The notes under the pieces are model-generated. The model had not been told where the DNA came from and searched no databases. It saw only the letters and a program-made list of their open reading frames with translations. A program made the translations under genes and the position numbers. DNA of 64,000 nucleotides from Vitreimonas sp. (GTDB taxonomy: Bacteria; Patescibacteriota; Microgenomatia; UBA1400; PJMF01), in the NCBI GenBank assembly GCA_035627515.1, contig DASPLQ010000012.1, positions 327,269 through 391,268 on the forward strand, written 5' to 3'. Positions 14,967-51,537 of the stretch are shown in pieces (positions within the stretch are counted from its first letter, which is position 1; every line of letters starts with the position of its first letter).

Positions 14967-14987
14967 TAACTAACGCTGACACCATTT

Positions 14988-16103: not shown

Positions 16104-16113
16104 GAGCTAGGCT

Positions 16114-29400: not shown

Positions 29401-32400
29401 GGGAGCTTCAACTAATAACTTTACCTTCCGCCAAGGTGGCCAAAATGGGACTGAGTTAATGAGATTATTAGGCACAGGTAACTTAGGAGTGGGAACCACT
29501 GGACCAGATGCTCGTATCGATTCCCTCGCTACCTCTGGTGAACAACTCCGCTTAACGTACACTGATGGCTCTGCCTACACCGGATTCACTACCAATAGTG
29601 GTGGAGACTTAACCATCGTGCCATCTGGCGGCGATGTTAACATCACGGGTAACTTGAGCTTAACTGGCACCACTACCTTCAACTCACAAACCTACACTTG
29701 GCCAGGTTCACAAACTGCTAACTACGTCCTGCAAACCAATGGTACAGGCACCTTGAGTTGGGCTGATCCTACTCAATTTGGTCTGTGGCGACAATCTTTG
29801 GGTGCCATCTCACCGATCAATAACACCTTCGATTTACTAGTCGGTTCCAATGCTACAAGTAGTGCCAAGTTTGCAGTCTTAAATGTGAACTCAGGCACAC
29901 CAACCGCCTCAGTTTCAGCCGGAACCTCTGGAGCTGCTTACCTGACTGCGGCTGGTGCGTTACAAACCACCGCTCGCCAAACCTTAAGTCTAGGTGGCTC
30001 CACCACTGGCAACACGAATGTGCTCAATACTGCTGGCACTGCCTTCACTACCTTTGACGCTACTAACAGTCGTGTGGGCATTGGCACCGCAGCACCTGGG
30101 TTCAACCTCGAAATCGCTGATGCTACTGATCCACAAATGGTGGTGACTGATACTACCAATACCGTGAGAACTCGAGTTCAATCACAAAATACGGTCGGTG
30201 TTCTTGGTACTTCTTCCAATCACGCCTTGCGCATCCAAACTGGATCAACTAACGCCATTTCTATTGATACTAGCCAATTAGTAGGTATTGGCACCACTGC
30301 ACCAGATGCCAGACTTGATTCACTTTCTACCTCCGGTGAGCAGCTCCGCTTAACCTACACCGATGGTTCAGTTTATACGGGCTTTACCACCAACTCGAGT
30401 GGTGACTTAACAGTTGCTCCTTCTGGCAGTGATGCTAACATCACCGGTAACCTCGACGTCTCTGGTACCTTCGCCTCTGGCACTGCCGATGCCCTTACTA
30501 TCGACGCCTCTGGTAACTTAGTTACTACTGGTACCTTAACTGCTAACACCAACGAAACCATTAATGGTATCGATATCAACGCTGGCGCTGTCAGTGACAT
30601 CACTACCCTCTCTGCCTCGAGTACTATCACCTTCTCAAGTTTCACCACCAACGGTGGTGTGCTCTACACCAATGGCTCTGGCGTCTTGGCACAAACTGCT
30701 GTGGGTAGTTCGGGAGAGTGTTTGAAATCAGCTGGTGCTGGCGCTCCAACCTGGGGTAGCTGTACAGCTGGGGCAGGTTCCAGTAACTGGCGCTTAACCA
30801 ATGGTGCCTTCTCACCTATCAACGACACCGCTGACGTCTTGATCGGAAGTACGGCTACTTCGAGTGCTAAGTTTGCCTTCATCAACGTCAATTCTGGTAC
30901 ACCAACTGCCTCTATCTCCGCTGGCACTTCTGGTGCTACCTACATCGCCGCTTCTGGTTTGATCCAAACCACCGCTAACCAAAACTTAACCATCGGCGGT
31001 AACACCACTGGTAACATCACCTTGGCTCCGCTCAATGGCGCTGGCACAGTCAATGTCACCGGCAACGCCGACGTCTCTGGCACGTTCGCTTCTGGCACTG
31101 GCAACGCCTTCACCATCGATGCCACTGGGAACACTGTCACTTCTGGTACTGTCACTGCTGCTACTAACGAAACTATCAACGGAGTCGATATTAACAATGG
31201 CGCCATCAGTGACGTCACTACCCTCAGTGCCTCAAGTACCATCAACACGACAGGCGGTACCATCCAAACTAACTCTACGAGTCGCATCGATAACTCGGGT
31301 AACTTGACTAACATTGGCACCACTCAATTGAACGGTCAAACCTACACTTGGCCAGGTTCTATTACTGCTGGTGGCGTCTTACAAACCTCAGGTGGTGGCG
31401 CCTTGAGTTGGGCTGATCCAGCAGGCTTCGGTCAATGGCGCTATGGCAATGGTGCCATCTCCCCAATCAACAATACTTACGATCTCTTAGTTGGTTCCAA
31501 TGCTTCCAGCTCAGCCAAGTTTGCTGTCTTGAACGTCAACTCTGGCACACCTACAGCCTCAGTCTCAGCCGGTACAGCTGGCGGTGCCTATATCACTGCC
31601 GATGGTAAATTAGCCACTACTGCCAAACAAACCTTAACGCTCGGTGACACCAATACTGGCAATGTAGTCATCCCTAGCTCCAACTTAGGCATTGGTAACA
31701 CTCAACCTTTCGCTCAATTACACTTGACCGCTACTGGAGAAAGCGGCGTTGCCCGAGGCTTACAAGTTAATGCCAACGATTTAAATACTAATGCTACCAT
31801 TACCAAATATGGCAACAATGGTGGCCTTGATCTCCGCACAGCTTGGACTGGTAACAGTAATATTACTTCTGGCATTACTCTGGGTGAAGGCAATGCCTGG
31901 AGTCCTGACATTCGCTTCTACACCGCCTTCCAAGGTGCGACCCGCAGTGAGCGAATGAGAATTACTGATATTGGTAATATTGGTATCGGAACCACTACAC
32001 CTACTTCCTTGTTCCACGTTAACGGTGGTTACGCCAACAACGCTCTCGCCACCTTCAATCAACTTAACTCCGGTGATATCCTGACCGCTTCAGCATCTGG
32101 TGCGACTCGCATGCGCTTGACCAACAACGGCAACATGATCATTGGTCCTTCCACAGCGGCTATTAACTACAACATGATCTCTCAAAGTGGCACGGCTTCC
32201 TTTGCTAGCACCAACAACGACCTCTATATCGAGGATATCCTCGAGGTCGGCGGCAGTATCGTGTTGGGTGGCAACCAATTGATGGCTAATGCCCTCTGGC
32301 AAAATAATGGTAATGTTTACTCACCAATTGGTGCTTACGGCAGCGTGGCTGACCTGGCTATCGGTGGCACTGCGACCTCGAGTGCTAAGTTCCAAATCTT

Positions 32401-35218: not shown

Positions 35219-35300
35219 CCTGGAAAAACAAAAAGATCTCTAATGATAGAGTATGAGAAATTTAAAAAAGTATTGAAACTAGGTAAGATTAAAGAAGCGC

Positions 35301-38300
35301 ATGTTGCAGTCGTTGTTAGCAAAACTAGCTCAAAAAATCGCCCCCCACCGCACGGCTTGGGACCGGGCTGTGAGGTTGGTGCAGCACACGACCCGGCCGG
35401 CCCGGCACGAGGCTCGGCGGCGGCTGAGCTATGCGTGGGCTTCTACCTATAATCGCGTCCATCACCGCTGGCACATTTTTTCGCAGACCCCCCGGGGCAA
35501 AAAAGTGAAAAAACTGCTGGAAAAACTGCCATTTGTAACGCCTCAAAAACGGGCTTTTATTCATCAGCACCCACAGTTAGTCAGCGTCGGCACCGGTTTA
35601 GCACTGGCCGTGTTGGTCCTTAGTGGCCTCTACTATCGCTGGTGGTACTCTCCTTCTCCTCGCTTTAAGCCTAACTTCTTCAATCCGGGTACTTTCTCAG
35701 GGCAAAACCCTACCAGTCCTCTGGTGGCTAACATCGCTAAAACCAAGACCGGCGCCCAAGTTCAGATTCTGAATGGTAATTCGGGGATCGAGTTTATCAC
35801 CCCAATTATCAAAGCCGAGATGAAGATAGCTCAAGACAAGGCTATTTTTAAAGACAAAAACCAAGCTCAAGAGGTGCGATACCAATTAATTGATAAAGGT
35901 ATCAAAGAAGAAATCATTCTTCATACTGATCCGCAAACCAATACCTTCACCAGCGGTCTCCAAACTAAAGACGCCACTCCGGCCTTGACTGCTGATCAAC
36001 AAATTATTTTCCTTAATGACCAAAACGAGTACGTTTTTCACCTCGAGAAACCCTGGGCTAAAGATGCTAATGGGGACATAACGTATGCAGTTTCATACAA
36101 ATTGGTTCCAAAAGAAAAACCTGGACTATTCAATCTAAATAAGCAGACTGAACAAAATACTGCTCTTTCACCTCTTGGCCAACTCAATGCCAGTACGGTT
36201 GATTTAATGGGTGGTGTCTCACAGTTAGCCAGCCCTACCTCGGCCGCTATCACACCTGATGGCGCTTATGACTTAGTGATGGAGATCGATCCCCGGTGGA
36301 TGAGCGCTCCCGAGCGCGTTTACCCGATTACTATTGATCCAACGGTAATTTATGAGGTCAGCTCAGAGTATGCAAGTGGAGAGTATAACCGCGCATATGA
36401 TGCTGGGTACAACCGCACTCCAGATTCTAACAATAACAATCGTGAACTGTCTGCCGACACTAATACGATCGGTCTGTGGCATTTGAATGAAATTGGGGCA
36501 GCCACCCACATTGATTCTTCAGGTAACGGCAACACCGGCACTTCAAGCAATGCCACGGTGGTAGATGCTCAAATTAATAAAGGTTTGAGCTTTAATGGCT
36601 CCAGCACTATCGTCTCAGTAGCCGACTCAACTTCTCTCGATTCCATCACCAACAACATGACTATTGAGATGTGGATTAATCCTGGTTCCACGCAAAATGC
36701 CTTCTCAACCATTATGAGTAAACATAGTACGGGAACCGGAGTCTTTTCTCTGGAGCAAAATAATACCAGTACTAATGTTTACAACATGTGGTTTAGTGGG
36801 AATACCTGTACTGACATCCTGACACTGACTGCTAATAAATGGCAACATATTGCCGTAGTCAAAAATGGCACCAGTGTTAATAGTTATATTGATGGTCATT
36901 TTCATCGGAGTTGTACGCTAGCTTCCTCCACTATCACTCCTAATAATGACCTTCTCTACTTTGGCCGCTGGTCTTCTGGCGGCGGTCGGTTTTTTACTGG
37001 CCGGATGGACGAAATTCGGCTCTCCAACTCTGCCCGGACTCAAATCGAAATCAAAGAAGCTGCCCAAAAAGGCCCCAGCATTGAAAGCTTCTATCAAGAA
37101 CTTCCCGCTGATGAACACACCTTGGGTTTATGGCACATGAATGAGGGCACAGATAATACTTGTAGTGGTGGTCAAGACCTGTGTGATGTTTCTGGCAATA
37201 GTCTGCACGCTACATTTAATGGTAATGCGGCTTTTACTACCAATGGCCGACTGGGAACCTATGGTATGAATCTCGATGGTAATGCTGATTATGCAGAGTT
37301 TCCGGATAGTTCATTACTCGATTTAGGCACCAGTGATTTTACTCTGGAAACGTGGGCGTATGCCAATAGCTTTACCACCAATAATACCTATATGGAGCTT
37401 GGTTCTTGGCCAAGCGCTATGATATTTCGGCAAGATAGTGCCAGTGTGCTCGGCTTCTATACCATGAGTGGATCATATACCTTTTCCTACTCCCCACCTA
37501 CTAAACAGTGGTATCACGTAGCATTAGTGAGAAACAAAGGTGTTTTGACACTTTATGCTGATGGCAAGTTTGTGGGCAATCAACTGAGCGATGCCACGAT
37601 CACCGTAGCTGGTGTTAATCGCTTTGGTTCTTCTGTTCATACCACTGCCCAGTACTTCAATGGTTCTCTTGATGAAATTCGCATTTCAGGAGTAGCGCGC
37701 AGTGCTGATGAAATTAAACTCAATGCCCAGCGCCGGCCGTACGCTATCTATACTTCACCTGTTATCGATTTGACTCAAAATTTAGATGATGGCTCAAAAG
37801 GAGAGCTGCTCATGGATAACACTAGTTTAGTCGCCCAATGGAACTTCAATGAAACTTCTGGTACGAATGTTAATAGTTTAGCTGGCTCATGTGGTAATAA
37901 CTGTAACGGGACTTTGTATAACGCAGCAGACACCAGCGGACAGGATAAAGTGGTTGGTAGTGGCTGGACTAATACCAATAAAAAATGGGGGCAAAGTAGT
38001 TTGATGCTCGATGGAAGTAATGATTATGTGAGTATGGGTGTGAACTCAAATCTGAACTTCACCACTCAAAATTTCACTATGGAAGGGTGGTTTAAATTTG
38101 ATAGTTTAGCTAGTACTCAAGTTCTGATGGGTAATGGAACTGGTAACCAAAATGGTTATTTCCTATATTGGGAATCTTCTTCAGGAACCTTGTCTTTTGC
38201 TACGGCACAAAGTGGTACAACACAAGTTAGTTTCTCAACAGCTTCTCCCATAACAACAGGCCAGTGGTACCATCTTGCAGTAAGCAGAAATGGCTCAACA

Positions 38301-41300
38301 GGGAAAATATATGTTAATGGAACGGATGTAACTAGCTTTAGTGGTAATCATATTAACCCCACTTCCTCTACCTATCCATTTGCAATTGGTGTCTCTTCGT
38401 TTAATCTAATTACGTTTCCTATGGATGGCGCAGTGGATTCGGTCCGCGTGTACACCCGCGTCCTCTCCGCCAGCGAACTCCTCACCAACTACCAAGCCAA
38501 CGCCAATCGCAACATCGTGGATTGGGGCGGAAATGGCGAAAGTTTAAATAGTACTACTGGCTTAGTGGCTCAGTGGGATTTTAATGAAACCTCAGGGACC
38601 ACCGCGTCAGTGACAGCTGGTTCATGTGGAGTTAGTTGCAACGCCACTTTGACTAGTTTTGCCAATACATCAGGCCAAGACGTGGTAGCTAACTCAGGAT
38701 GGACAGCAACCAATAAACGCTGGGGTACTGGGGCGGTGATGCTGGATGGTAGTGATGATTATTTGACCGATGCTTCGCCAGGTACCTTACCTACTGGAGC
38801 TACTGCACGCACTATCGAGATGTGGGTTAAACCCTCTAATTTATCAACCGGTGGAGCGTTATTTCACTACGGGAATGGCGCTACAGCCGGGCAAGAATTT
38901 ATTCTGCAATTCACTAATCTTTCGGGGGATCTTTATTTGTTTACTGATGGCACTAATGCTGCCAATAATATTGCCGTCCAACCAAGTGAAGCTCCCGCTA
39001 TTGGCGAGTGGAACCATGTAGTCTTTACTTTAGATGGCGCTAATAACTGGGTCTATTATCTCAATGGTGTCCGGCGACTATCTGGTACTTTCAGTGTAGC
39101 CATTAATACAGTAACGCCGACTGTGATGAACATTGGCGACCGCACTGATGTAGCAAACACTAATTTCCCAGGAGTGATTGATAGTACACGTGTCTATTCT
39201 CGGGCTCTTACTCCAGCTGAAATCATTGAAAACTACAAAGTCAGTGAGTTAGCTTGGCTCGAACGTGGTGTAGCTACTGGTGATGGTGAAACCCCAGCTA
39301 ACTCGAGTGGGCTAACTGCCGAATGGTATTTCAATCAAACCTCTGGCACTACTGCCAATGCTGGTGGCAGTTGTGGTGCTACTTGTAATGGCACACTTAC
39401 CAACTTTGCTTCTACCGGCTCTCAGGATGCTGCTGCAGGGACTGGTTGGACCGCCGCCAATCGCCGCTGGGGTGCCGGTGCTATTGCCTTTGATGGCACA
39501 GATGATTATGTGAGCGTGCCAGATAGTTCTGTGTATGAAACCTCTACCGGCAGTATTGAGTTATGGTTTAAGACCTCCACTAGCCAAGGGCCTCGCTATA
39601 TATTCAGCAAAAGCCAAACTGTTAACCAAGCCTTTAACTTCTATCAAGACACCTCTAACCGGTTGGCATTTTGGATCCGCAATACTGCCGGGACCAGCAG
39701 TATCACTATTACCTCTCAAAACGCCATTCATGATGGCGAGTGGCATCACGCAGTAGGAATTTGGGGCAGTAGTGGCATGAGGTTATACCTAGACGGTAAG
39801 CTGCAAAGCTCTAACACTTACACCGGGTGGTGGGATGGGACTACCGCTGCTTTGCAGTTTGGGCGTGAAGCCACTACACCTGGCTTCTATTGGAAAGGGA
39901 GCATGGATGCGGTACGGATGTACTCACGTGTGTTAACGCCTGAAGAGATTTTGTCCAACTACAATGCTGGTAACATCGAGTTACAAACCCGGACCAGCAG
40001 CGATGGCTCTACTTGGGGGGCTTGGTCACCGGTCAGTAGTGAGACAGCAATTGAAAGTTTTGATACCAATACTAGTGTGGCAACACCGAGCGCTCAGACC
40101 AATCTGACTTGGTATAAATACGATAATACACTCCCTCCTCAGACTTCAGATAGTGACAGTACCAATGGCCGGATTTTCTTAGGTAGTGCTGGCCGTGGTG
40201 ATGCAAGTGGAACGCTCGTTCCCCGAGTAATCTATGATGGCGGTGTCTACAAAATGTGGTATGCAGCTCTTAGTGGCAGTGGGTGGATGGGCTATCACGC
40301 TACCTCCCCCGATGGTTTGACTTGGACCAAATATGACAACGTTATTCCCACTACATCCAACACCACCGGCACCGGTGGGCGTTTACCATTAGGTGTAGGC
40401 GGTACTGGTGATGATGGTGGCGTTTATCCAGGGCCCGTGATCAAAGATGGTAATGAGTACAAAATGTGGTATCAAGGCGACGATGGAGCTAATTCTCGTG
40501 GATATATGGCCACATCAACAGACGGCATTAATTGGAATAAAGTCAATAATGGCATACCTGGCACTTCTAATACCACCGGCAGCAATGGCCAGCTTCCTTT
40601 GGGTGCTAGTAATGGTGATATCACTCATACTGTACCTGGTAGTGTCATTAAAGAAGGCTCCACTTTAAGGATGTGGTACAGCGGGTACAACGCTGCTTGG
40701 CGCATCTTCTATGCTGAGTCAACTGATGGTGGATATACCTGGACTAAGCAAGGTAATACGGCAGCTGGCACTTGTGATACAGTCTGTACTGAGGGGGCCG
40801 GCCGGCTGGGTCTGGGAACTAGTGGTAAGGGTGATGATAACGGTGTCTATGCTCCAATGGTGATTAAAGATGGCTCTACGTATAAGATGTGGTATGCGGG
40901 TCATGATGGCAGTACCGGTTGGCGCATTTTCTATGCTACCTCGCCCGATGGTTTGATTTGGACCAAGTACGACAATAATCTTCCGGGCCGTTCTGATAGT
41001 ATGGGCACTAACGGACGAATTGGCCATGGGAACACTGGTAAAAGTGATAATGGTACTGAACTCTATGGCATCAGTGTAGTGGATACCGGGACCCAGCTTA
41101 AAGCCTGGTATCACACCTATTACTCCGATGGCGTGAGCGTTAACACTCACTACATCAATCATGCCTACATGGATAAAGCAAACTCGCCGACTATCACCAA
41201 AGCGGACAGTAGCGCCATCAAAATGGAAGGTAGTAACGCCCTCAAACTCAATACTGCCACACCTCAGATTGACTCAAGCACTGTGGGTTATTGGAGCTTT

Positions 41301-44300
41301 GATGAAACGGGTGGCACCGGGGCTTATCTCCGAGACCAATCATATACCGCACCAGCAACTCCTGATGTCGGCGACGGTGCCGATGGCGCTATTACCGTTA
41401 GTGCCAATCGTAATATCAATACAGATAACATGATTAGTGGTCGCAGTTGTGCTGATGGTGGTGATGCTGTTAATTATTCTTCTACAGTTAATACAGCCAC
41501 AGGGTCAGCTTCAATTACGCTCTCCTCTACTCCTTCTACGGGCTGTTTAGCGGTTGGTGATGAGGTCCTGATTATTAATCAACAACTGATTGGGAGTCCC
41601 ATTGATTATGATCAGGTGGGGCAATGGGAAACTAAAACCATTCAATCTATTTCAACTAACACTCTCAACTTCGCTACTGGTTTAAGTAATGAGTACCGCG
41701 GGGCCACCCAAAGAATTATGGTGCAGCGAGTTCCCAACTATACCAATGTCACCATTAACTCTACCTTTACTTTGACTGCTAATGCCTGGAACGGCGTCAA
41801 GGGTGGAGTCCTTTTCTTCCGCGCTAATGGCACGGTTAGCAATAGTGGCACGATTGATATGAATGGCAAAGGGTACCGTGGGGCACCTAGAAGACAAGTA
41901 GGCGTTGATTATACATATGGCTGGATGGGCGAATCGGAAGCCGTGGGTTATCAGGCAATAGCTCAAGCAGCCAGCATTGCTTCAGGGGGTGGGGGTGGAA
42001 ATGGACAAGGCGGCGGTGCTGGTGGTAGTTACGGAACATTGGGTGTGGATGGTGTAGCTGCTGGTTGTACGGTGGGCGCACCTTTTACTACCGGTCGCAT
42101 TAAAGGTGATGCTGCATTAACCAAACTTCACTTTGGCGGAAGTGGTGGCGCCGCTGGCTCACATAATGGTGGCGGTCGTGATGGTGCTATCGGTGGAGCT
42201 AGTGGTGGCATTCTAGGCATTGCGGCTACCACTTTAACTAATAGTGGTACGATCCGAGCCAATGGTAGTGCCGGTGAAAATGGTTACTTCGCCGCTGGCG
42301 CCAACCAACCTATGGGTGGTGGTGGTGGTGGTGCCGGCGGTAGTGTGCTGATTCAAACTACAACTTTAACCACCGGCACTATTACTGCTAGTGGAGGTGC
42401 CGGTGGTTCGGCTTCTGCTACCGGAGCTGGCTGTACTCCTAGTGGTGCTGGCGGTGCCGGTGGCCAAGGTCGAATTAAAGTTGATACCACTTCAGCTCTC
42501 GGTGGGACAACTACACACCCTCTAACCTCTTCTTCTCCAGATCATGCTACTCCTACCGGCACTACCGTAGTAGACGGTGTAGTCGGCAAAGCTCGCAGCT
42601 TCAATGGCACTAGTGATTACTTGGAAATTCCTGACAGTGGCCAAATCAGAGTTGGTGAACCTCATTTTACGTTTGAAGGCTGGATTAATCCGAGCTCGTA
42701 CTCAGGTTGTGGGACAGATGGATCAGGCGCAACATGCATGATCGCCAACAAAGAAAACGTGTATGAGTTTGCTATGGCTAGTAACGGCAACGTTAACTGG
42801 GCTATTAATAATACCAGCCCTGGCTGGGCCTGGATTAGCACAGGAGCGAACCTTCCTCTAAATACTTGGACCCACATTGCCATTGTGTATGACGGTCAAT
42901 TCGTCTACACCTATAAAAATGGCCAACAAGTTCATATGAATGCCGCCAGTGGTGTTATCAATCACCAAACGGCTCGGGCGGCTCTCAGAATAGGGGCTCG
43001 TAATGCTCCGCTGGCAGCCAACTCATTTTTCCCAGGCAAAATGGATGAAATTAGTTTGTCATCTAGAGCCAAAACCAAAGAAGAAATTGACATGAGCTAC
43101 CGCCTGGGAGCAAATCAAACTGTCACTAAAACTATCTCCACTACTGATCTCTCAGGTAAAACTCAACTACCTTTTTATGTGGCTGCCGACCGACCTGGCA
43201 CCTACCTTCAGCCCACCCTCGGTGAAAATAGTTATGTTAACTATGACCCTGATTCAACCACGATTGCGCATTGGAAGTTTGAAGAGAATCTTAACTCATG
43301 GGGTGATTACTTCTTTGGCACCACTCTTGATAGTTCAAAGTGGATTGAGATTGATCCTGGAGGTAAGCTCGCCCAAAGCAATGGTATGATTCTTAGCGCA
43401 GGTTCAACTGGGGCCAACTGGGATGCGGGTTTAATTTCTAAACAGAAGTTTACTCGAGATCAAACTACTGTCTTGTATGCCAGATTCATAACTGGCTCCA
43501 CTGTGGCTTCACCCAATCATATGATGATCGGTTTTGCCCAAGATCAAACCGCGAGTGGTGCTTTTGGTACTATTTCTCATGCACTTTATTTTAATGCTGG
43601 AACTTTTTATATGTTCCAAGATGGAGCTAACGTAGGTGGCCCTCTCGGTAGTGGCTACGTCGCCAACACATTGTATGAGATTTCCGTTCAACTTAATTCA
43701 AATGGGACCGCCACCTATTATGTAAAAGGTGGGGTCTATACCAACTGGACAGCGTTAGGTACTGACACTGCCAAAACCAACTCTCCACTTAGAGTTCAAA
43801 TCTCTAACTATCAACACACAGGGTATTTTAGTGAAATTGCAGTAGGTGTCCCTGATCGATTAGTGACCGATAGCAGTGGCTATGACAATCATGGCCAAGT
43901 CTATAATGCCAAAACTTTTCCGGGTAAATTGGGTTCGGGCCGCAATTTTAATGGCATGGATAGTTTTATCTGGGTTCCTCCGTCTAATATTAGATACAAT
44001 TTTTTTCAATCCGATCCTTTTACTATAGAAGCCTGGGTAAGGCCAACTGCTGTGAGTAGCACCGACCGGTACATCTTTAACAAACAACAAAATGTCACTA
44101 ATGAATTCGTTTTCGCCCTTAATTTAACTTCAGGTAATAAATTTAACCTGGCTCTATCAAAACAAAATATTAGCGGACAAAACATCACTGGAACCAGTAC
44201 ACCTGTAGCTGGCCAGTGGTACCATGTAGTAGGCGTCAGCAACGGCACGACTGCCTCTTTATATGTAAATGGGCAGCTAGAGGCCAGTAGTGCTATTAGC

Positions 44301-46442
44301 ATTACGAGCACTACTCAATCTAAAGCAGATATCCAAATTGGTCGTTTATACACCGGAGCAAATTACTTTGCCGGCGAAATGGATGAAATTCGCATCTCCA
44401 ACATCGCCCGCACTGCGGATGAGATTCGCCAAGCTTATGAAGTTGGTAAACGCTCTTACCCTATTACCATTGATTTCACTGCCGATCTTGATTCAGGAAA
44501 TTTGATCACTAATTCGGGCGATACTTCATTTACAGTTGATGGCACTGCTTGGGGTATGGGTAGCAAGGGCAACAACCTGTACGTAGGTGAGAAAGTCATC
44601 ATCAAAGAAAATTACGATGGTACTGAGTACATTGCTCAGGGTATAGTAACCACTGTCAATGCTTCTACGGGTGCAGTTAATGTGAGTAGCTGGGATGCCG
44701 GTTCTACTTTCCCTTCCGGCGGCTTCACCACCAATGCCATTGTTTTCAAATGGCAACGAGAGTATTGGGACATTACAGGAGCGTTTGATTCGCATCTCAA
44801 TGCCACTACCGATCTCAGTTTACGCGTCACTAATGGTCTGGAAGGCCGCACCATTTGGATCGATGATCTCAAATCAAACGCCGGTTATATGAGCACTGCT
44901 ACTGGTACTGATGTTACCTCTTCACCAAATCGTTACATTCAATACCGAGCCATTATTTCCAGTAGCGATACAAATGTCTCTCCTGCTATGCGGACTGTAG
45001 CTATGACATATGAGGAAAATGTCGCTCCCAACACACCCACATTAGATTCACCTGCTAATGCGGCCACTGGCGTCACCACCAGTCCAACTCTACAAACCAC
45101 CGCTACCGATACTGAAAGTGATTACTTGCGCTATAAGATCGAGCTTTGTACTGATTTAGCTATGACCACTGGCTGCCAAACCTTTGACCAAACCAGCTCC
45201 CAAACGGGATGGAGTGGTCAGAATGCCCAAACCAGTACCGCTTATAATTCTGGGTCTCAAGCTAGTTACACCCTACAAACACCACTCACCTCCAACACTA
45301 CCTATTACTGGCGCTCCTACGCCATCGATCCCGGCGGCCGCTATGCGTGGAGCAGCACCCAAGGTACGCCGTACTCCTTTACCACCAATAAAGCTCCCAA
45401 TGTGCCCACGCTCGACGCGCCTACCGACACTGCCACTAATCAACTGCTACTGCCGCTCTTGCACACCACTGCCACCGATGACAACAGTGATTACCTACGC
45501 TATAAAATCGAACTCTGTACCAATGTCGGTATGACCACGAGCTGCCAAACTTTTGATCAAACCAGTTCCCAAACGGGTTGGAGCGGTCAAAATGCCCAAA
45601 CCAGTACTGCCTATACTTCGGGCACTCAGGCAACGTACACCATTCAGTCTGCCCTCAGTCCCAACACCACCTACTATTGGCGCTCTTACGCCATTGATCC
45701 AGGCGGGTCTAATAGTTGGGGAGCTACACAAGGTACCCCCTACTCCTTTACCACTTCGGCAGTACCTACCGCTCCTAATCTACTAGAAGCTGAAGCCACC
45801 ACTAATCCCACTGGCGTCACCGACATTACACCAGAATTCACGGCTATTTATAACGATCCCAATAGTGGTGACTTAGCCAATAAATATCAAATTCAAGTCG
45901 CCACCGCGGCGGATTTTAGTGGCACGTTGATGTGGGACTCAGGGTCAGTATCAATGTCTAATCTCACTCAAGGCACTCGCTCAACCGCTGTCTCGTATGC
46001 AGGTACAGCCTTAACCTACAACGGCGCCACGTATTACTGGCGAATCCGTTTCACCGATGTGGCTGGCAATGTAGGAGCCTGGAGCAACGAAACTGCCACC
46101 TTTACCATGTACAACTTATTGACTCCGTCTTCCTGTACTCTGGCGAAAACTATCCCCAACACGCAAATCACCGTCAGCTGGAATGATCCTAATAGTGGTG
46201 AAGATGGCTATGAGGTGCAAAAGAGTCTCAATGGGGGGGCTTTTGGTGCTTTGACCACTACTGCTGCTAACGCTACTTCCTATCCAGATAACACTACGAG
46301 CGATGGTAATACCTACCAATACCGCGTCCGCGCCACCATGAACAGTCAAACCTCGAACTGGTGCACAACTGCTACATTGTCACTTGATACTGACTACTTA
46401 AGATTGGAAGGCGTCAAGCTCGATGGTTTACAACTCAATTAA
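35301..46442 (+). CDS. giant (3713 aa) membrane-anchored multidomain surface protein: at least 7 LamG/ConA-like lectin modules, 5 beta-propeller-blade-like repeats, glycine-rich beta-helix-like block, 4 C-terminal FN3-like domains
   Basis: Uninterrupted 11.1-kb ORF starting 83 nt after giant gene 1. Basic N-terminal tail and TM (LVSVGTGLALAVLVLSGLYY). LamG-type C-terminal motifs recur (GRMDEIRLSNSARTQIEIKEA, GSLDEIRISGVARSADEI, MDGAVDSVRVYTRVLSASELLTNY, GVIDSTRVYSRALTPAEIIENY, GSMDAVRMYSRVLTPEEILSNY, GKMDEISLSSRAKTKEEI, GEMDEIRISNIARTADEIRQAYE). ~55-aa repeats with ...DGG.YKMWY... occur five times between 40100 and 41150. Poly-Gly/Ala/Ser block at 41950-42480. FN3-like repeats at 45000-46400. 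Confidence 0.85.
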   Translation: MLQSLLAKLAQKIAPHRTAWDRAVRLVQHTTRPARHEARRRLSYAWASTYNRVHHRWHIFSQTPRGKKVKKLLEKLPFVTPQKRAFIHQHPQLVSVGTGLALAVLVLSGLYYRWWYSPSPRFKPNFFNPGTFSGQNPTSPLVANIAKTKTGAQVQILNGNSGIEFITPIIKAEMKIAQDKAIFKDKNQAQEVRYQLIDKGIKEEIILHTDPQTNTFTSGLQTKDATPALTADQQIIFLNDQNEYVFHLEKPWAKDANGDITYAVSYKLVPKEKPGLFNLNKQTEQNTALSPLGQLNASTVDLMGGVSQLASPTSAAITPDGAYDLVMEIDPRWMSAPERVYPITIDPTVIYEVSSEYASGEYNRAYDAGYNRTPDSNNNNRELSADTNTIGLWHLNEIGAATHIDSSGNGNTGTSSNATVVDAQINKGLSFNGSSTIVSVADSTSLDSITNNMTIEMWINPGSTQNAFSTIMSKHSTGTGVFSLEQNNTSTNVYNMWFSGNTCTDILTLTANKWQHIAVVKNGTSVNSYIDGHFHRSCTLASSTITPNNDLLYFGRWSSGGGRFFTGRMDEIRLSNSARTQIEIKEAAQKGPSIESFYQELPADEHTLGLWHMNEGTDNTCSGGQDLCDVSGNSLHATFNGNAAFTTNGRLGTYGMNLDGNADYAEFPDSSLLDLGTSDFTLETWAYANSFTTNNTYMELGSWPSAMIFRQDSASVLGFYTMSGSYTFSYSPPTKQWYHVALVRNKGVLTLYADGKFVGNQLSDATITVAGVNRFGSSVHTTAQYFNGSLDEIRISGVARSADEIKLNAQRRPYAIYTSPVIDLTQNLDDGSKGELLMDNTSLVAQWNFNETSGTNVNSLAGSCGNNCNGTLYNAADTSGQDKVVGSGWTNTNKKWGQSSLMLDGSNDYVSMGVNSNLNFTTQNFTMEGWFKFDSLASTQVLMGNGTGNQNGYFLYWESSSGTLSFATAQSGTTQVSFSTASPITTGQWYHLAVSRNGSTGKIYVNGTDVTSFSGNHINPTSSTYPFAIGVSSFNLITFPMDGAVDSVRVYTRVLSASELLTNYQANANRNIVDWGGNGESLNSTTGLVAQWDFNETSGTTASVTAGSCGVSCNATLTSFANTSGQDVVANSGWTATNKRWGTGAVMLDGSDDYLTDASPGTLPTGATARTIEMWVKPSNLSTGGALFHYGNGATAGQEFILQFTNLSGDLYLFTDGTNAANNIAVQPSEAPAIGEWNHVVFTLDGANNWVYYLNGVRRLSGTFSVAINTVTPTVMNIGDRTDVANTNFPGVIDSTRVYSRALTPAEIIENYKVSELAWLERGVATGDGETPANSSGLTAEWYFNQTSGTTANAGGSCGATCNGTLTNFASTGSQDAAAGTGWTAANRRWGAGAIAFDGTDDYVSVPDSSVYETSTGSIELWFKTSTSQGPRYIFSKSQTVNQAFNFYQDTSNRLAFWIRNTAGTSSITITSQNAIHDGEWHHAVGIWGSSGMRLYLDGKLQSSNTYTGWWDGTTAALQFGREATTPGFYWKGSMDAVRMYSRVLTPEEILSNYNAGNIELQTRTSSDGSTWGAWSPVSSETAIESFDTNTSVATPSAQTNLTWYKYDNTLPPQTSDSDSTNGRIFLGSAGRGDASGTLVPRVIYDGGVYKMWYAALSGSGWMGYHATSPDGLTWTKYDNVIPTTSNTTGTGGRLPLGVGGTGDDGGVYPGPVIKDGNEYKMWYQGDDGANSRGYMATSTDGINWNKVNNGIPGTSNTTGSNGQLPLGASNGDITHTVPGSVIKEGSTLRMWYSGYNAAWRIFYAESTDGGYTWTKQGNTAAGTCDTVCTEGAGRLGLGTSGKGDDNGVYAPMVIKDGSTYKMWYAGHDGSTGWRIFYATSPDGLIWTKYDNNLPGRSDSMGTNGRIGHGNTGKSDNGTELYGISVVDTGTQLKAWYHTYYSDGVSVNTHYINHAYMDKANSPTITKADSSAIKMEGSNALKLNTATPQIDSSTVGYWSFDETGGTGAYLRDQSYTAPATPDVGDGADGAITVSANRNINTDNMISGRSCADGGDAVNYSSTVNTATGSASITLSSTPSTGCLAVGDEVLIINQQLIGSPIDYDQVGQWETKTIQSISTNTLNFATGLSNEYRGATQRIMVQRVPNYTNVTINSTFTLTANAWNGVKGGVLFFRANGTVSNSGTIDMNGKGYRGAPRRQVGVDYTYGWMGESEAVGYQAIAQAASIASGGGGGNGQGGGAGGSYGTLGVDGVAAGCTVGAPFTTGRIKGDAALTKLHFGGSGGAAGSHNGGGRDGAIGGASGGILGIAATTLTNSGTIRANGSAGENGYFAAGANQPMGGGGGGAGGSVLIQTTTLTTGTITASGGAGGSASATGAGCTPSGAGGAGGQGRIKVDTTSALGGTTTHPLTSSSPDHATPTGTTVVDGVVGKARSFNGTSDYLEIPDSGQIRVGEPHFTFEGWINPSSYSGCGTDGSGATCMIANKENVYEFAMASNGNVNWAINNTSPGWAWISTGANLPLNTWTHIAIVYDGQFVYTYKNGQQVHMNAASGVINHQTARAALRIGARNAPLAANSFFPGKMDEISLSSRAKTKEEIDMSYRLGANQTVTKTISTTDLSGKTQLPFYVAADRPGTYLQPTLGENSYVNYDPDSTTIAHWKFEENLNSWGDYFFGTTLDSSKWIEIDPGGKLAQSNGMILSAGSTGANWDAGLISKQKFTRDQTTVLYARFITGSTVASPNHMMIGFAQDQTASGAFGTISHALYFNAGTFYMFQDGANVGGPLGSGYVANTLYEISVQLNSNGTATYYVKGGVYTNWTALGTDTAKTNSPLRVQISNYQHTGYFSEIAVGVPDRLVTDSSGYDNHGQVYNAKTFPGKLGSGRNFNGMDSFIWVPPSNIRYNFFQSDPFTIEAWVRPTAVSSTDRYIFNKQQNVTNEFVFALNLTSGNKFNLALSKQNISGQNITGTSTPVAGQWYHVVGVSNGTTASLYVNGQLEASSAISITSTTQSKADIQIGRLYTGANYFAGEMDEIRISNIARTADEIRQAYEVGKRSYPITIDFTADLDSGNLITNSGDTSFTVDGTAWGMGSKGNNLYVGEKVIIKENYDGTEYIAQGIVTTVNASTGAVNVSSWDAGSTFPSGGFTTNAIVFKWQREYWDITGAFDSHLNATTDLSLRVTNGLEGRTIWIDDLKSNAGYMSTATGTDVTSSPNRYIQYRAIISSSDTNVSPAMRTVAMTYEENVAPNTPTLDSPANAATGVTTSPTLQTTATDTESDYLRYKIELCTDLAMTTGCQTFDQTSSQTGWSGQNAQTSTAYNSGSQASYTLQTPLTSNTTYYWRSYAIDPGGRYAWSSTQGTPYSFTTNKAPNVPTLDAPTDTATNQLLLPLLHTTATDDNSDYLRYKIELCTNVGMTTSCQTFDQTSSQTGWSGQNAQTSTAYTSGTQATYTIQSALSPNTTYYWRSYAIDPGGSNSWGATQGTPYSFTTSAVPTAPNLLEAEATTNPTGVTDITPEFTAIYNDPNSGDLANKYQIQVATAADFSGTLMWDSGSVSMSNLTQGTRSTAVSYAGTALTYNGATYYWRIRFTDVAGNVGAWSNETATFTMYNLLTPSSCTLAKTIPNTQITVSWNDPNSGEDGYEVQKSLNGGAFGALTTTAANATSYPDNTTSDGNTYQYRVRATMNSQTSNWCTTATLSLDTDYLRLEGVKLDGLQLN
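45010..45760 (+). repeat. tandem duplicated ~375-nt FN3-like coding repeat near the 3' end of giant gene 2
   Basis: Two adjacent copies (NVAPNTPTLDSPAN...DYLRYKIELCTDLAMTTGCQTFDQTSSQTGWSGQNAQTSTAYNSGSQASYTLQ...TTYYWRSYAIDPGG and KAPNVPTLDAPTD...DYLRYKIELCTNVGMTTSCQTFDQTSSQTGWSGQNAQTSTAYTSGTQATYTIQ...TTYYWRSYAIDPGG) with long identical nucleotide runs, e.g. cagtgattac[ct]t[gc]cgctata[ak]a[ag]atcga[ga]ct[tc]tgtac. Confidence 0.7.
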
Positions 46443-46514: not shown

Positions 46515-47270
46515 ATGCACACTTCTCGGCATACAAAAAAGAAACATCCAACTAAAGTTTCTTCTCATAGGAGCACGCTTCGTATGTCTACATCCACCTC
46601 ATCTCGAGGCTTAATTTCTTTTCAACAAGTCCGCTTAGTAGTGCTGATACTCATTTTGGTACTATTGCTTGGCTTATGCGCCTTTTTATGGAAGATGTAC
46701 ACTACTCCCGCTCAAGTACGAATGTTACGCGGCAATGACCTCGCTCATTCAAATCCTACTGAAACCCAACCTACCATTGATAGTTTTATTAAGCAGCCTG
46801 AAGGTTCGCAACCTGCTCCCGGTGAGTTAAACAGCTTATTGGCTGCCCCCTCTGCCGCACCTACCACTACTAATCCTCCTTCACCTACAACTGCGGCACC
46901 TTCTGCAAAACCTATTGTTACTCCCTTAGCTAAAGGCCCCCAAACGTACTTTGTGCGCAGTGGCAACACGGTTGGTCCCCAAATTCTGCAAGTTGATATT
47001 AGTGAGTTTGACCCTGCTCCCAATACCATGCAGAGTTTTACCGTCAAATTACGTAACCTCAGTCCCCAACCTATCACTAAAGTCTCGATTGAATTAAGTA
47101 CTGATAATGGCACTAAAACATACCCTCTATCGCTTAGTGAAGGTAGCGCTGAAGCTGGTATCTGGAAAGGCAGCTGGTCCACGACTGATACACATAATCG
47201 TATTTATACAGCTAAAGTGGTGGCAGCGGATGGCAATAATAGCGGAAGTGTTGTCTTGACATTCAGATAA
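46515..47270 (+). CDS. membrane-anchored secreted protein with Pro/Thr/Ala-rich linker and C-terminal beta-rich domain
   Basis: Basic N-terminus, TM (LVVLILILVLLLGLCAFLW), APSAAPTTTNPPSPTTAAPS linker. No family recognised. Confidence 0.5.
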   Translation: MHTSRHTKKKHPTKVSSHRSTLRMSTSTSSRGLISFQQVRLVVLILILVLLLGLCAFLWKMYTTPAQVRMLRGNDLAHSNPTETQPTIDSFIKQPEGSQPAPGELNSLLAAPSAAPTTTNPPSPTTAAPSAKPIVTPLAKGPQTYFVRSGNTVGPQILQVDISEFDPAPNTMQSFTVKLRNLSPQPITKVSIELSTDNGTKTYPLSLSEGSAEAGIWKGSWSTTDTHNRIYTAKVVAADGNNSGSVVLTFR

Positions 47271-47300: not shown

Positions 47301-48320
47301 ATGAAAATTACCTCATTCACCAAAATTTTAAGCTCTAGTCTTATATTATTCAGTTTGTTACTCATTCTTCCCACTTCTGTCCAGGCTGTGGCTTGTGAAC
47401 CACAGCAACGTGGCAACACCACGTTTAATTCGAGCTGTGCTTTTGATGGCGAAGTCCATGGTGTGTATGAAGGTGATTTAATCTTATCTGAAGGTGCCAC
47501 ATTGACTATTAATGCTGGCCAAACGATTTACTGGGGAGCCACCAATAAAATTGATTTGACCCCGGGTGGAGCAATTGCTATTAACGCCACTGGCCAAATG
47601 AAACAAGGCGATTTACAAGAATTCAATATGGCTCGCTTTGGTTTCGATACCTATGGCGCAGCCTTGCCCGTACGCATTTTTGAAAATAACATGTTCGTTT
47701 GTACAGGTACTTCTTGTCAAGCTACCGCCCCTAGCGCCGCTGGTAACTTGATTGTGGAAGGTGTCATCAAAATGACCGGTGGCACTCCTGGTGCCGGTAA
47801 AGTCTTAACCTCCGATGCCAATGGCGTCGCTAGTTGGCAAACCGTTTCAGGAATTCCTTCTGGTTTAATTGCAGCTTTCGCCTCAGCCTGCCCTTCTGGC
47901 TGGACAGAGTACACTGCCGCTCGAGGTCGCTATGTGGTCGGTGTCGTTAATGGCGGAACTGTAGAAGCCACGGTAGGAACTGCTTTTACCACCAACCAAG
48001 AAAGCCGACCCGTGGGTCAACATAATCATTCAATTGACCCTCCTAATACAGTTACAGATAACCAAGGCTCACATGCTCATAACGTTTATACTCGTAAAGA
48101 AGAAGACAACGGCACCTGGGGTTTTGATTGGGCACAAGGTGGCTATGATTACTACACTTGCTGCCGCTTTGGCCGACCTGGTGTATTCTTCGGCACTACT
48201 GATTCCCAAGGCTTACATGGTCATAACTTAAATATTGCTGCCTTTAACAGTGCGGATTCTGGTGCTGTAGCTGGCACCAATGCTCCCTATATCCAACTTC
48301 GTTACTGTAAAAAAGATTAG
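47301..48320 (+). CDS. secreted phage tail-collar domain protein (MdpB / Phage_T4_gp36-like)
   Basis: Signal peptide MKITSFTKILSSSLILFSLLLILPTSVQA. C-terminal GIPSGLIAAFASACPSGWTEYTAARGRYVVGVVNGG...GQHNHSIDPP...GSHAHN matches the tail-collar pattern (PSGW..CDG......RGRF.VG, then H.H motifs). Confidence 0.6.
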   Translation: MKITSFTKILSSSLILFSLLLILPTSVQAVACEPQQRGNTTFNSSCAFDGEVHGVYEGDLILSEGATLTINAGQTIYWGATNKIDLTPGGAIAINATGQMKQGDLQEFNMARFGFDTYGAALPVRIFENNMFVCTGTSCQATAPSAAGNLIVEGVIKMTGGTPGAGKVLTSDANGVASWQTVSGIPSGLIAAFASACPSGWTEYTAARGRYVVGVVNGGTVEATVGTAFTTNQESRPVGQHNHSIDPPNTVTDNQGSHAHNVYTRKEEDNGTWGFDWAQGGYDYYTCCRFGRPGVFFGTTDSQGLHGHNLNIAAFNSADSGAVAGTNAPYIQLRYCKKD

Positions 48321-48965: not shown

Positions 48966-49595
48966 CTAAAGTGAGCTCAAGTAAACTTGCTGCAAGATAG
49001 TGCTCCATTCTTGATTTTGGGCTAACACTCGAGTAGTAAGCTTTTGCTGAATCGGATCGTTACCGGTATTCAAAAAGACATACAAGGCAATTTCTTTGTT
49101 GGCAAGTTCACCATTGTTGAGCATATCCACTATCACAGCTTGACCTACACTTGAAGTTAAATCCATCTGAGCGGTGACGGTATAACCATTCCCCACTTTC
49201 TCTACCTGGGCATCTCCCATCGAAAAAAGCCAAGGAGTCTCTAGCTCAGTGGTGCCAGTTTTTTGAGGAAAACCCAAACCTACTTTCGGCTCTACAAATA
49301 ATCGTCTTTGAGGTTCATCGCTGGTTACACTCAGCATCACAGAATATTTATATTTATTATTTGTACCTGGAAGTAACTCTAAGTTCTCATCTACGACCTC
49401 GATGTGAGGCAGACTCACCGGAGTAGGAGCCAAAAATGACAGCCAACCGGTTTTCGGCAAAGCCGCAATCACTAAGCCTACTCCCCCAATAACTGCTATC
49501 CCAGCTACTATGCCCAAGCTCCAAATCACCTTTTTGTACTGACTCAAAAAAGTAGGTGAAGTAGTAGCGGTATCAGTGGGTTGCTCGGGTGGCAT
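48966..49595 (-). CDS. bitopic membrane protein encoded downstream of the pilin genes (possible pilus-associated protein)
   Basis: Single TM (VIWSLGIVAGIAVIGGVGLVIAAL) then a periplasmic/extracellular beta-rich domain. Same strand as the three pilins, 12 nt from the upstream gene. Confidence 0.5.
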   Translation of the reverse strand: MPPEQPTDTATTSPTFLSQYKKVIWSLGIVAGIAVIGGVGLVIAALPKTGWLSFLAPTPVSLPHIEVVDENLELLPGTNNKYKYSVMLSVTSDEPQRRLFVEPKVGLGFPQKTGTTELETPWLFSMGDAQVEKVGNGYTVTAQMDLTSSVGQAVIVDMLNNGELANKEIALYVFLNTGNDPIQQKLTTRVLAQNQEWSTILQQVYLSSL

Positions 49596-49607
49596 AGCTT
49601 CCTCCTT

Positions 49608-50135
49608 CTAATCCTCACACATAAAATAATCTAACGAACTCGGCGTCCCAGTGTATTGGCCGTACCCATGGCCACTTGGTACGCATCGTTGTTGGCTCTT
49701 GATAATATCCTCATCAGAAGCATTTTCTAGTTGTGTCCGTAATAAAAATTTATTACCGACATAGGGATTTTCCGTGTAATACGAAAACGTGCCTGTGGTG
49801 GGTAATTCTTTCATATAAACAGTTGGGCCACTGCCAGCACTAAAAGTAATGGCACAATTGCCACTCGGTGTACAAGTACATTGAGTGACCCCCAAGAGGC
49901 CACAGCCTACAATAGCGGTATTTGCACCGGCTGAAGCTGGATACTTCTGATAATCGTTGTAGTACAAGCGCAAAGCGGTTTTTAAGTTGCGCAGATCACT
50001 CTTTTTCTTCGCGTCAGCGGCGCGGCTGCGGACTCCCACAAAGTTGGGCAGCAGCATGGCAGCCAACACCCCAATTACCGAGATGACAACCAATAACTCG
50101 ATTAAAGTAAACCCTCGCCGTGACCATGTTTTCAT
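49608..50135 (-). CDS. type IV pilin/pseudopilin (class III signal peptide)
   Basis: MKTWSRRG-FTLIELLVVISVIGVLAAML: prepilin cleavage motif G/FTLIE with Glu at +5. Cys pairs in the C-terminal domain. Confidence 0.8.
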   Translation of the reverse strand: MKTWSRRGFTLIELLVVISVIGVLAAMLLPNFVGVRSRAADAKKKSDLRNLKTALRLYYNDYQKYPASAGANTAIVGCGLLGVTQCTCTPSGNCAITFSAGSGPTVYMKELPTTGTFSYYTENPYVGNKFLLRTQLENASDEDIIKSQQRCVPSGHGYGQYTGTPSSLDYFMCED

Positions 50136-50144
50136 TACTACTCC

Positions 50145-50708: not shown

Positions 50709-50713
50709 AATTA

Positions 50714-51420: not shown

Positions 51421-51537
51421 CTATACCAACTTTTTGACCTGCAAGGCAATCAATAACCTGTTGCGCCGATGGTATGTACAACAGAGACCTAGTGAGTCAC
51501 CCTTCCCAAACCTCTCAAAATTTGTTTCAATAGAGGT

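Follow-up and report, generated by a model that had tools for sequence, protein, structure and literature searches.

Giant surface proteins in Patescibacteria

The membrane proteomes of candidate phyla radiation (CPR) bacteria are enriched in giant proteins that are thought to mediate host attachment, according to the passages on such proteins in an account of Vampirococcus lugosii (PMC8080830). Here we describe a protein of similar size, g2, which is the product of the second of two adjacent giant genes in a 64-kb stretch of contig DASPLQ010000012.1 (hereafter the window). The ten longest proteins of V. lugosii (1392–4163 aa), as they are presented in those passages, come from the same phylum-level group and resemble g2 in size, in predicted membrane location and in being strings of interaction domains. 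The domains named for them are WD40, TPR (printed as ‘TRP’) and PKD, whereas g2 is composed of LamG, β-propeller, AgmC_N-like and fibronectin type III (FN3) modules. A role in host recognition or attachment is a proposal in both cases, and the likeness is one of size and architecture.

A second comparison is provided by Southlakia epibionticum, where transposon sequencing identified envelope proteins with lectin-like and FN3 domains as needed for epibiotic growth (PMC10633639). These essential proteins carry lectin-like VCBS, dockerin or FN3 domains, and are proposed to act in adhesion to, or degradation of, host glycans. The combination of glycan-binding-type domains with FN3 is found likewise in g2; S. 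epibionticum differs in being a saccharibacterium and in the domain families used. Most of what is known of how the ultrasmall Patescibacteria recognize and hold their hosts comes from a few cultured Saccharibacteria.

Chains of β-sandwich spacers that present ligand-binding modules, as in g2, are also seen in the RTX adhesins (MpIBP, SiiE) and in Ebh. These are exported by type 1 secretion and kept in place by an N-terminal retention plug, or else are anchored at the C-terminus. In contrast, g2 has an N-terminal transmembrane signal-anchor and a conserved C-terminal tail, and no RTX, LPXTG or YSIRK signal.

We interpret g2, with moderate confidence, as a long and multivalent fibre without enzymatic activity that serves as an adhesin or in host recognition. 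Public databases already list the protein as a LamG protein without a specific name, giant surface proteins with many domains are expected of CPR genomes, and g2 does not stand out within its family, which is common yet uncharacterized in Patescibacteria. What is new here is the conserved locus of g1 (the upstream giant gene), g2 and pilin genes, three unassigned family-specific domains, the conserved tail, and the view that the propeller probably lacks catalytic activity.

Domain structure of g2

The g2 gene is a complete open reading frame (ORF) on the forward strand (35301–46442), with an ATG start and 3713 codons followed by a stop. There are no internal stops, the GC content is about 47%, and a frame of this length is too long to have arisen by chance, so the ORF is real. 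Two public contigs encode an identical product, one of 1.41 Mb from an ENA metagenome (ERZ27252484 k141_237778) and one of 46 kb from a separate Logan assembly (SRR7003767), and the protein has been deposited as NCBI HYD34823.1, a ‘LamG-like jellyroll fold domain-containing protein’. Because the same protein occurs on two assemblies, a frameshift is not indicated. The initial annotation, made from the nucleotide sequence, had proposed a 3713-aa ORF that frameshifts might overturn, and as far as public data tell it holds. The features of g2, all on the forward strand, are as follows.

35301–35570: basic N-terminal segment (aa 1–90), predicted cytoplasmic; R12/K8/H8 in the first 100 residues
35571–35636: single transmembrane helix (aa 91–112), predicted signal-anchor; the sole Kyte–Doolittle window above 1.6
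35652–36551: N-domain (aa 118–417), family-specific and juxtamembrane, ending YPITIDPT(V); alignment A3
36552–37076: LamG module 1 (aa 418–592); Pfam, jackhmmer boundaries
37230–37736: LamG module 2 (aa 644–812); Pfam, jackhmmer boundaries
37968–38501: LamG module 3 (aa 890–1067); Pfam, jackhmmer; PDB 4qvs sequence match, E 2.4e-13
38703–39248: LamG module 4 (aa 1135–1316); Pfam, jackhmmer; PDB 5hon sequence match, E 1.8e-5
39453–39974: LamG module 5 (aa 1385–1558); Pfam, jackhmmer boundaries
40101–41195: five-bladed β-propeller (aa 1601–1965); blade hidden Markov model (HMM), AlphaFold2, Foldseek, GH117 profile match; blades (blade HMM) at aa 1620–1689, 1690–1759, 1760–1828, 1832–1900 and 1902–1962
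41364–42527: AgmC_N-like domain (aa 2022–2409); NCBIfam NF047640, AlphaFold2 model
42561–43112: LamG module 6 (aa 2421–2604); Pfam, jackhmmer boundaries
43287–43895: U2 domain (about aa 2663–2865); alignment A5
43908–44450: LamG module 7 (aa 2870–3050); Pfam E 6e-35, jackhmmer
44451–45050: U3 domain (aa 3051–3250); alignment A4
45033–45770: two tandem FN3/Ig-like modules (aa 3245–3367 and 3368–3490); direct repeat, hhalign
45771–46115: Ig_Rha78A_N-like module (aa 3491–3605); PF25788, 60.1 bits against a cut-off of 27.4
46116–46385: canonical fn3 module (about aa 3606–3695); PF00041, marginal at 26.1 bits against 25; PDB FN3con, E 0.005
46398–46439: conserved C-terminal tail LRLEGVKLDGLQLN (aa 3700–3713); strict pattern at 11 locus ORF ends

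Laminin_G_3 (PF13385) scores 584.8 bits on g2 against a cut-off of 27.6 (E 8e-178), in seven stretches, and modules taken in isolation match at E 5e-28 and 6e-35. Both Pfam and jackhmmer give exactly seven modules, where at least seven LamG/ConA-like modules had been claimed. Modules 1, 2 and 7 contain an exact copy of the motif by which they had been recognized, G.MDE[IV]R[IL]S, and module 6 a close one, but in modules 3–5 the motif has degenerated to G.[VIM]D[SA][VT]R[VM]Y. LamG and fn3 models both lie above their gathering thresholds, as the Pfam search suggested at the outset was expected to find. A self-BLAST of the whole protein gave the diagonal only, and the repeats were mapped instead by jackhmmer and HMMs.

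The helix at aa 91–112 is the sole hydrophobic segment in g2, in agreement with the single N-terminal anchor originally proposed, and one N-terminal transmembrane helix is present in nearly all full-length orthologues. By the positive-inside rule, aa 1–90 would lie in the cytoplasm, and the helix would be an uncleaved signal-anchor giving a type II topology (N-in, C-out).

The five-bladed propeller

Five repeats of about 55 aa had been noted. The count of five stands, but the period is about 70 aa as measured with the blade HMM. In addition to the five blades there is a partial blade strand at aa 1601–1618, which probably closes the ring. AlphaFold2, supplied with 18 homologous units (alignment A2), produced a model with five repeated groups of β-strands (pLDDT 86, pTM 0.84). 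Foldseek against the PDB matched it with probability 1.0 to 9gph, 7fip, 5mt2, 4qqs and 4ak5, at target-normalized template modelling (TM) scores of 0.6–0.71. The matches include GH130 phosphorylases, BT_0996 and members of glycoside hydrolase families GH117, GH43 and GH32, and a profile of the propeller unit matches GH117 at E 6e-9. Structure prediction and fold search therefore agree with the five-bladed GH43/GH32 type of propeller that had been suggested.

Blades 1–4 each contain an Asp-box of the type SxDGxxW (SPDGLTW, STDGINW, STDGGYTW and SPDGLIW). No BNR family was found for the segment in Pfam at E ≤ 1, and there were no sialidases among the 50 best Foldseek matches listed, which were to GH130, GH43, GH32 and GH117. 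With five blades rather than six, and with its best fold matches in these four families, the propeller does not fit the sialidase-like alternative that had been offered.

The fold raises the question of whether the propeller is an active catalytic domain of GH130, GH43 or GH117 type, with the LamG and FN3 modules serving as carbohydrate-binding domains and spacers. The fold class is indeed that of the GH130, GH43, GH32 and GH117 enzymes, and architectures joining LamG or other carbohydrate-binding modules to a catalytic domain are common in glycoside hydrolases. Pfam GH130 (PF04041) reaches 27.8 bits on the isolated segment against a cut-off of 26, the GH117 profile match has E 6e-9, and many homologues are labelled by JGI as ‘predicted GH43/DUF377 family glycosyl hydrolase’. 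In the full-length scan, however, GH130 falls to 17.9 bits.

The blades themselves argue against enzymatic activity. Nineteen five-blade units with 70-aa blades were divided blade by blade and fitted to the blade model. A single consensus describes all five blades, tnGRiPlG..g.GD......P.VIKDg.tYKMWY.G.dg...RIyyATSpDGltWtKydN, in which the six positions following GD are variable, and no acidic or polar residue is conserved in only some of the blades of these 19 units. An asymmetric active site would give blade-specific conservation; since none is seen, the propeller is read as a binding or structural element. The blade motif R...G..D...P...Y.MWY is recognizable in GH117: when HMMER aligns the unit with BpGH117, the conserved GD and the Arg that precedes it fall on residues found repeatedly in the GH117 blades. 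The Asp of the GH117 ‘HDP’ motif aligns to a variable, non-acidic blade position, and none of the five g2 blades has Asp or Glu before the conserved Pro. We take this Asp to be the catalytic Asp245, with the numbering offset by the construct. Compared with the GH enzymes and BT_0996, which have the same fold, the g2 propeller thus has near-equivalent Asp-box blades and a non-acidic catalytic position, and is embedded in a giant non-enzyme architecture. The check for catalytic acidic residues that had accompanied the initial annotation therefore has a negative outcome by alignment, with none conserved in a blade-specific manner, and the glycan-degrading option is not supported. The GR...GD pair, the YKMWY strand and the Asp-box, which are the residues kept from blade to blade, are probably structural rather than catalytic.

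The homologues point the same way. Blades number 5 in 58 proteins, 10 in 17 and 15 in two (blade HMM), as expected if the units are five-bladed. Some homologues, P0005 among them, have five near-identical 70-aa blades, which indicates a recent amplification from a single blade, and others (P0011 and P0016) have 10–14 blades of about 59 aa, again as a result of very recent amplification. Sets of 5, 10 or 15 near-identical blades are typical of repeat propellers amplified recently and not of enzymes, and the GH43/DUF377 labels on such proteins may be over-calls. It is concluded that the g2 propeller is probably not an enzyme, a conclusion that is moderately secure and is reached by profile alignment and symmetry rather than by three-dimensional superposition; we regard catalytic activity as improbable.

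The closest relatives of the propeller are in other lineages (Lentisphaerae, archaea and WWE3), and among the related Patescibacteria loci scanned only the window protein carries it.

The glycine-rich domain

Following the propeller is a domain consisting of a small N-terminal β-barrel and a Gly-rich, solenoid-like body. The body holds the poly-Gly/Ala/Ser block described in the initial annotation, and the Gly content is 29–33% over aa 2201–2400. The block had been considered either a flexible segment or a β-helix. An AlphaFold2 model made from 58 homologues (alignment A1) has pLDDT 87.4 and pTM 0.87, with 10-residue block means of 76–98 in the Gly-rich stretch, and the block is therefore predicted to be ordered rather than flexible, within a confidently folded and widely conserved domain of about 390 aa. 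A β-helix finds weak support, in that Foldseek against the PDB matched the Gly-rich domain to phage tailspike β-helices, at TM scores below 0.2 only. In addition, about 90 aa of the N-terminal barrel match a phage tail-tube decoration domain (88 aligned columns in Foldseek).

No solved structure matches the domain globally, either in Foldseek against the PDB or in a PDB sequence profile search. The profile search gave weak echoes only, to the Gly-rich region of an Obg-family GTPase (E 0.15) and to a phage tail-tube decoration domain (E 0.09), both short of significance, and Pfam gave nothing at E ≤ 1 for aa 2000–2440. The ALK/LTK glycine-rich domain (PF12810), which the poly-Gly stretches had brought to mind, was considered and rejected: it has no Pfam match here, and neither the PDB profile search nor the list of the 50 best PDB matches in Foldseek contained an ALK or LTK chain.

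The only named family to match is the N-terminal domain of the adventurous gliding motility protein AgmC (NCBIfam NF047640), at 102.8 bits and E 2e-29 over model positions 21–398 of 412, and we therefore refer to the domain as AgmC_N-like. This raises the possibility that g2 is a motility adhesin, moved along the cell for gliding in the manner of AgmC or of Flavobacterium SprB, which like g2 is a giant protein. The match falls well short of the AgmC equivalog_domain cut-off (about 103 bits against 275), so that a homologous domain is indicated and an AgmC equivalog is excluded. A single domain is all that g2 and Myxococcus AgmC have in common, and in g2 it is internal, present once and set in a different architecture.

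The wider distribution of the domain is also not that of a gliding protein. Its profile, searched against 1.84 billion cluster representatives, matched 5,380 at E ≤ 1e-30 and 16,893 at E ≤ 1e-3, in thousands of unrelated architectures that include sponge and virus proteins. It often occurs in proteins of 3,000–7,700 aa, with 2–7 copies in each. In sponge (Oscarella) proteins it lies C-terminal to collagen repeats, and it also occurs with EGF domains (P0122–P0124, P0131 and P0147 are the sponge and related hits). In three candidate-phylum proteins (P0145, P0152 and P0155) it is fused straight to a prepilin N-terminus. A fold search of BFVD found it in a PA14-domain protein of a Bathycoccus virus (query-normalized TM score 0.65, E 1e-21), and the fold is present as well in an Ostreococcus virus, in ‘collagen-like’ proteins of Orpheovirus and Pandoravirus, and in uncultured tailed phages. 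A portable surface module, carried at the head or tip of fibres, would be distributed in this way, and a specific link to gliding is disfavoured. The window scan found no gliding-machinery genes, and we consider a gliding function very improbable.

The literature library searched yielded nothing usable on AgmC function or on polyglycine-II domains. The AgmC_N-like domain is a very large family of surface domains, with more than 5,000 representatives and with no Pfam model or solved structure matched.

Positive GC skew (+0.04 to +0.09) is found only at 38000–44000, in the middle of g2, and the skew is negative elsewhere in the window. The stretch coincides with the propeller and AgmC_N-like cassette, which is Gly-rich and hence rich in GGN codons. 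The skew may reflect amino acid composition alone, or a cassette of other origin.

Conserved and variable parts of the family

Related loci were collected by a scan of one genome per species, which gave 31 loci (numbered with the prefix L), and their ORFs were annotated with HMMs of the window domains. Most full-length matches are in metagenome-assembled genomes (MAGs) labelled Patescibacteria (Gottesmanbacteria, Collierbacteria, Pacebacteria, Dojkabacteria/WS6 and Microgenomates), together with a few co-assembly bins that have proteobacterial labels. Judged by these matches, the g2 family belongs to the Microgenomates group of Patescibacteria. In the shared architecture a transmembrane helix and the N-domain are followed by an array of LamG modules, a variable cassette (which may be AgmC_N-like, U2 or absent), a further LamG module, U3, a variable number of FN3 modules and the tail. 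The ends are conserved and the middle variable in more than 20 Patescibacteria loci, and the domain map therefore separates conserved parts (N-domain, U3 and tail) from swappable ones (propeller, AgmC_N-like domain and U2).

Three of these parts are specific to the family. The N-domain is 30–39% identical across 12 Patescibacteria loci (alignment A3), and U2 shows 50–54% identity among five close relatives (A5). Conservation is highest in U3, with 58–69% identity in 12 loci (A4), and this domain is present in almost every family member; those of its matches that bear an organism name are Patescibacteria, most being unnamed. Searches of Pfam, the PDB and PHROGs with the N-domain, U2 and U3 gave nothing significant. 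U2 and U3 were also compared with LamG by hhalign and rejected as divergent members of that family, at a probability of 1% or less.

After U3 come four FN3/Ig-like modules, in line with the four FN3-like domains first reported if the term is used loosely. The first two form a tandem repeat (45093–45337 and 45462–45706) with 79% nucleotide identity over 245 nt and a period of 369 nt. The duplication that had been called recent is therefore confirmed, but at this identity it is not very recent. The pair is related to the Ig_Rha78A_N-like module that follows (hhalign probability 89%), and both copies lie below every Pfam threshold.

The protein ends in a 14-residue tail, in which a hydrophobic-x-hydrophobic-x-G unit is repeated up to the carboxyl terminus, giving two Gly and hydrophobic residues at every other position. 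Besides the window ORF, 11 locus ORFs terminate in the strict form, [LFIVM]x[LFIVM]xG[LFIVMG]x[LFIVM]x[GN][LFIVM]x[LFIVM]x-COOH, and several more in looser variants; the loci concerned include L003–L005, L008, L009, L013, L015, L017, L019, L021 and L028. The tail is kept whichever type of FN3 or other domain precedes it. A search for sorting signals (LPXTG and the -CTERM families) gave no NCBIfam match in g2 beyond AgmC_N, and g2 has no C-terminal hydrophobic segment. The LRLEGVKLDGLQLN tail corresponds to no known sorting signal, and could be a docking or sorting element.

The direct repeat of the FN3 pair is the only one in g2, and it has no second copy in the 64-kb window, where a diversity-generating retroelement was looked for because such elements commonly target lectin-fold proteins in CPR bacteria. 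The 20 neighbouring ORFs scanned against Pfam include no reverse transcriptase. With neither a template repeat nor a reverse transcriptase in the window, g2 was rejected as a retroelement target.

The g1–g2 pair

Immediately upstream of g2 is a second giant gene.

20462–35218, forward strand: giant gene 1 (g1), 4918 aa, the upstream partner; homologues of its C-terminal third lie upstream of g2 homologues

The gap between the two genes measures 82 nt (35219–35300), one fewer than had been stated. A scan of this gap found no promoter-like or terminator-like sites, which is compatible with an operon but falls short of proof. Homologues of the C-terminal third of g1 are directly upstream of g2 homologues in nine other genomes (L004, L008, L009, L012, L015, L017, L018, L019 and L021). 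The co-transcription proposed in the initial annotation is therefore plausible, and the two genes are probably in one operon. They are not paralogues, the best BLASTP match between them having E 0.5. The g1 orthologues also end in a conserved tail, FNWW[IV]IN-COOH.

Further downstream, three pilin genes (49608–51481) are conserved after g2 homologues in L003, L004, L005, L008, L009, L011 and L019. Next come genes for a TPR protein, Obg, an M23 peptidase and Rho, in the same order in L019 and in L011 (Ca. Pacebacteria UBA6180), with 81–82% identity in Rho. The locus is thus a well-delimited example of a conserved giant-protein pair beside pilin genes in the uncultured Microgenomates group.

A broader proposal is that g1 and g2 together form a two-component giant surface-fibre system of Microgenomates-group Patescibacteria, linked to the cluster of minor pilins. 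We put this forward tentatively and rate its probability as low. Within it, U3, the 14-residue tail of g2 and the FNWW[IV]IN tail of g1 would make up an undescribed assembly or docking system, and the swappable middle cassette (propeller, AgmC_N-like domain and U2) would set the choice of host.

Some features of g1 are unusual in their own right. At about aa 99–181, in an N-terminal region predicted to be cytoplasmic, there is a match to the SAM-like core-binding domain of the tyrosine recombinases XerC and XerD (E 3e-8 in Pfam, and E 2e-9 for XerC in NCBIfam). A transmembrane helix follows at aa 232–256, and then about 4,650 aa that have no Pfam match. The presence of a DNA-binding-type domain on the inner side is odd. 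The gene also contains large internal repeats at 22150–31600 on the forward strand, with a period of about 2.2 kb and the motif ‘TYTWPGSQ..NYVLQTNGSGTLSWADP’.

Possible role of g2 at the cell surface

As an adhesin, g2 would be held in the membrane by its basic cytoplasmic stub and single transmembrane helix, with about 3,600 residues exported as a string of independently folded, β-rich modules, the majority belonging to lectin or binding families. Avidity for glycans on the envelope of another cell would come from the large number of modules of lectin type. The variable cassette (propeller plus AgmC_N-like domain) would tune the specificity, while the conserved ends (N-domain, U3 and tail) would serve roles common to the family, namely anchoring, assembly or docking to g1. 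The proposal that g2 binds carbohydrate follows from the domain families to which its modules belong, and an interaction between g1 and g2 is likewise presumed.

A toxin-delivery or polymorphic-toxin function was considered and rejected: g2 lacks Rhs, toxin and peptidase domains, and it ends in FN3 modules and a short tail. Pfam and NCBIfam detected no toxin, protease or other catalytic family anywhere in g2.

The same modules might instead face inwards, with g2 and g1 forming a constitutive fibrous coat or S-layer-like matrix that would protect or shape the cell, and in which the lectins bind the cell's own wall polymers. Among PDB sequences, the best match found with a LamG module is to 4qvs, an ‘S-layer domain-containing protein’, and the high conservation of U3 and the tail is what would be expected of self-assembly, as opposed to recognition of hosts that vary. 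The conservation of the pair together with Obg, Rho and the M23 peptidase fits a core envelope function, and the operon upstream encodes proteins like those of cell-surface complexes. Set against this, cassette swapping has made the middle of g2 differ greatly even among close relatives, which fits a diversifying recognition function better than a coat. No SLH or known wall-binding domain was detected, and elsewhere the AgmC_N-like module is carried by pilins, collagen-like stalks and virion proteins, all of them contexts of recognition. A coat is accordingly rather unlikely in our view, and we retain the adhesin as the preferred interpretation.

Several considerations weigh against the adhesin. 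An activity could be hidden in the N-domain, U2 and U3 (about 700 aa), to which no fold can be assigned. The superfamily of the propeller is one of enzymes, and the GH130 score on the isolated segment is just above the cut-off; the argument from catalytic residues is built on profile alignment and symmetry and is of moderate strength. The epibiont lifestyle of the organism is presumed from its phylum. Finally, the NCBI record labels the organism Vitreimonas sp. (Alphaproteobacteria), which conflicts with an assignment to Patescibacteria.

On this last point, the window is assigned to a Microgenomates-group patescibacterium because of its synteny and Rho identity with L011 and L019, and its gene content and closest relatives point to Patescibacteria as well. 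The Vitreimonas sp. label is then probably an error of binning or labelling. Gammaproteobacteria or Pseudomonadales are given as the source of several related MAG contigs, and these odd labels are probably also taxonomic mislabels in public records.

Neighbouring genes

The gene directly downstream of g2 encodes a small membrane protein.

46515–47270, forward strand: d1, a 251-aa single-pass membrane protein with its transmembrane helix at aa 31–65; tblastn

The C-terminal 115 or so residues of d1 are conserved, with tblastn matches directly downstream of a g2 homologue in L004, L005, L008 and L009, and between the g1-like and g2-like genes in L012 and L018. The next gene, d2 (47301–48320, forward strand), encodes a secreted protein of 339 aa with a C-terminal ‘CPSGWTEY...’ motif. 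We take this motif to be reminiscent of phage tail-collar and microcystin-dependent-protein domains; d2 had no match in Pfam or PHROGs. On the reverse strand at 48966–51481 there are four small genes, three of which have prepilin N-methylation motifs.

At the other end of the window, upstream of g1, lies a six-gene operon (10983–18213, forward strand) that encodes secreted and membrane proteins. One of these has a weak match to the peptidoglycan-binding domain of WxL-interacting proteins together with a C-terminal transmembrane helix, and another has Big_13 and CarboxypepD_reg domains. The operon resembles the Csc/WxL-type cell-surface complex cluster of Firmicutes.

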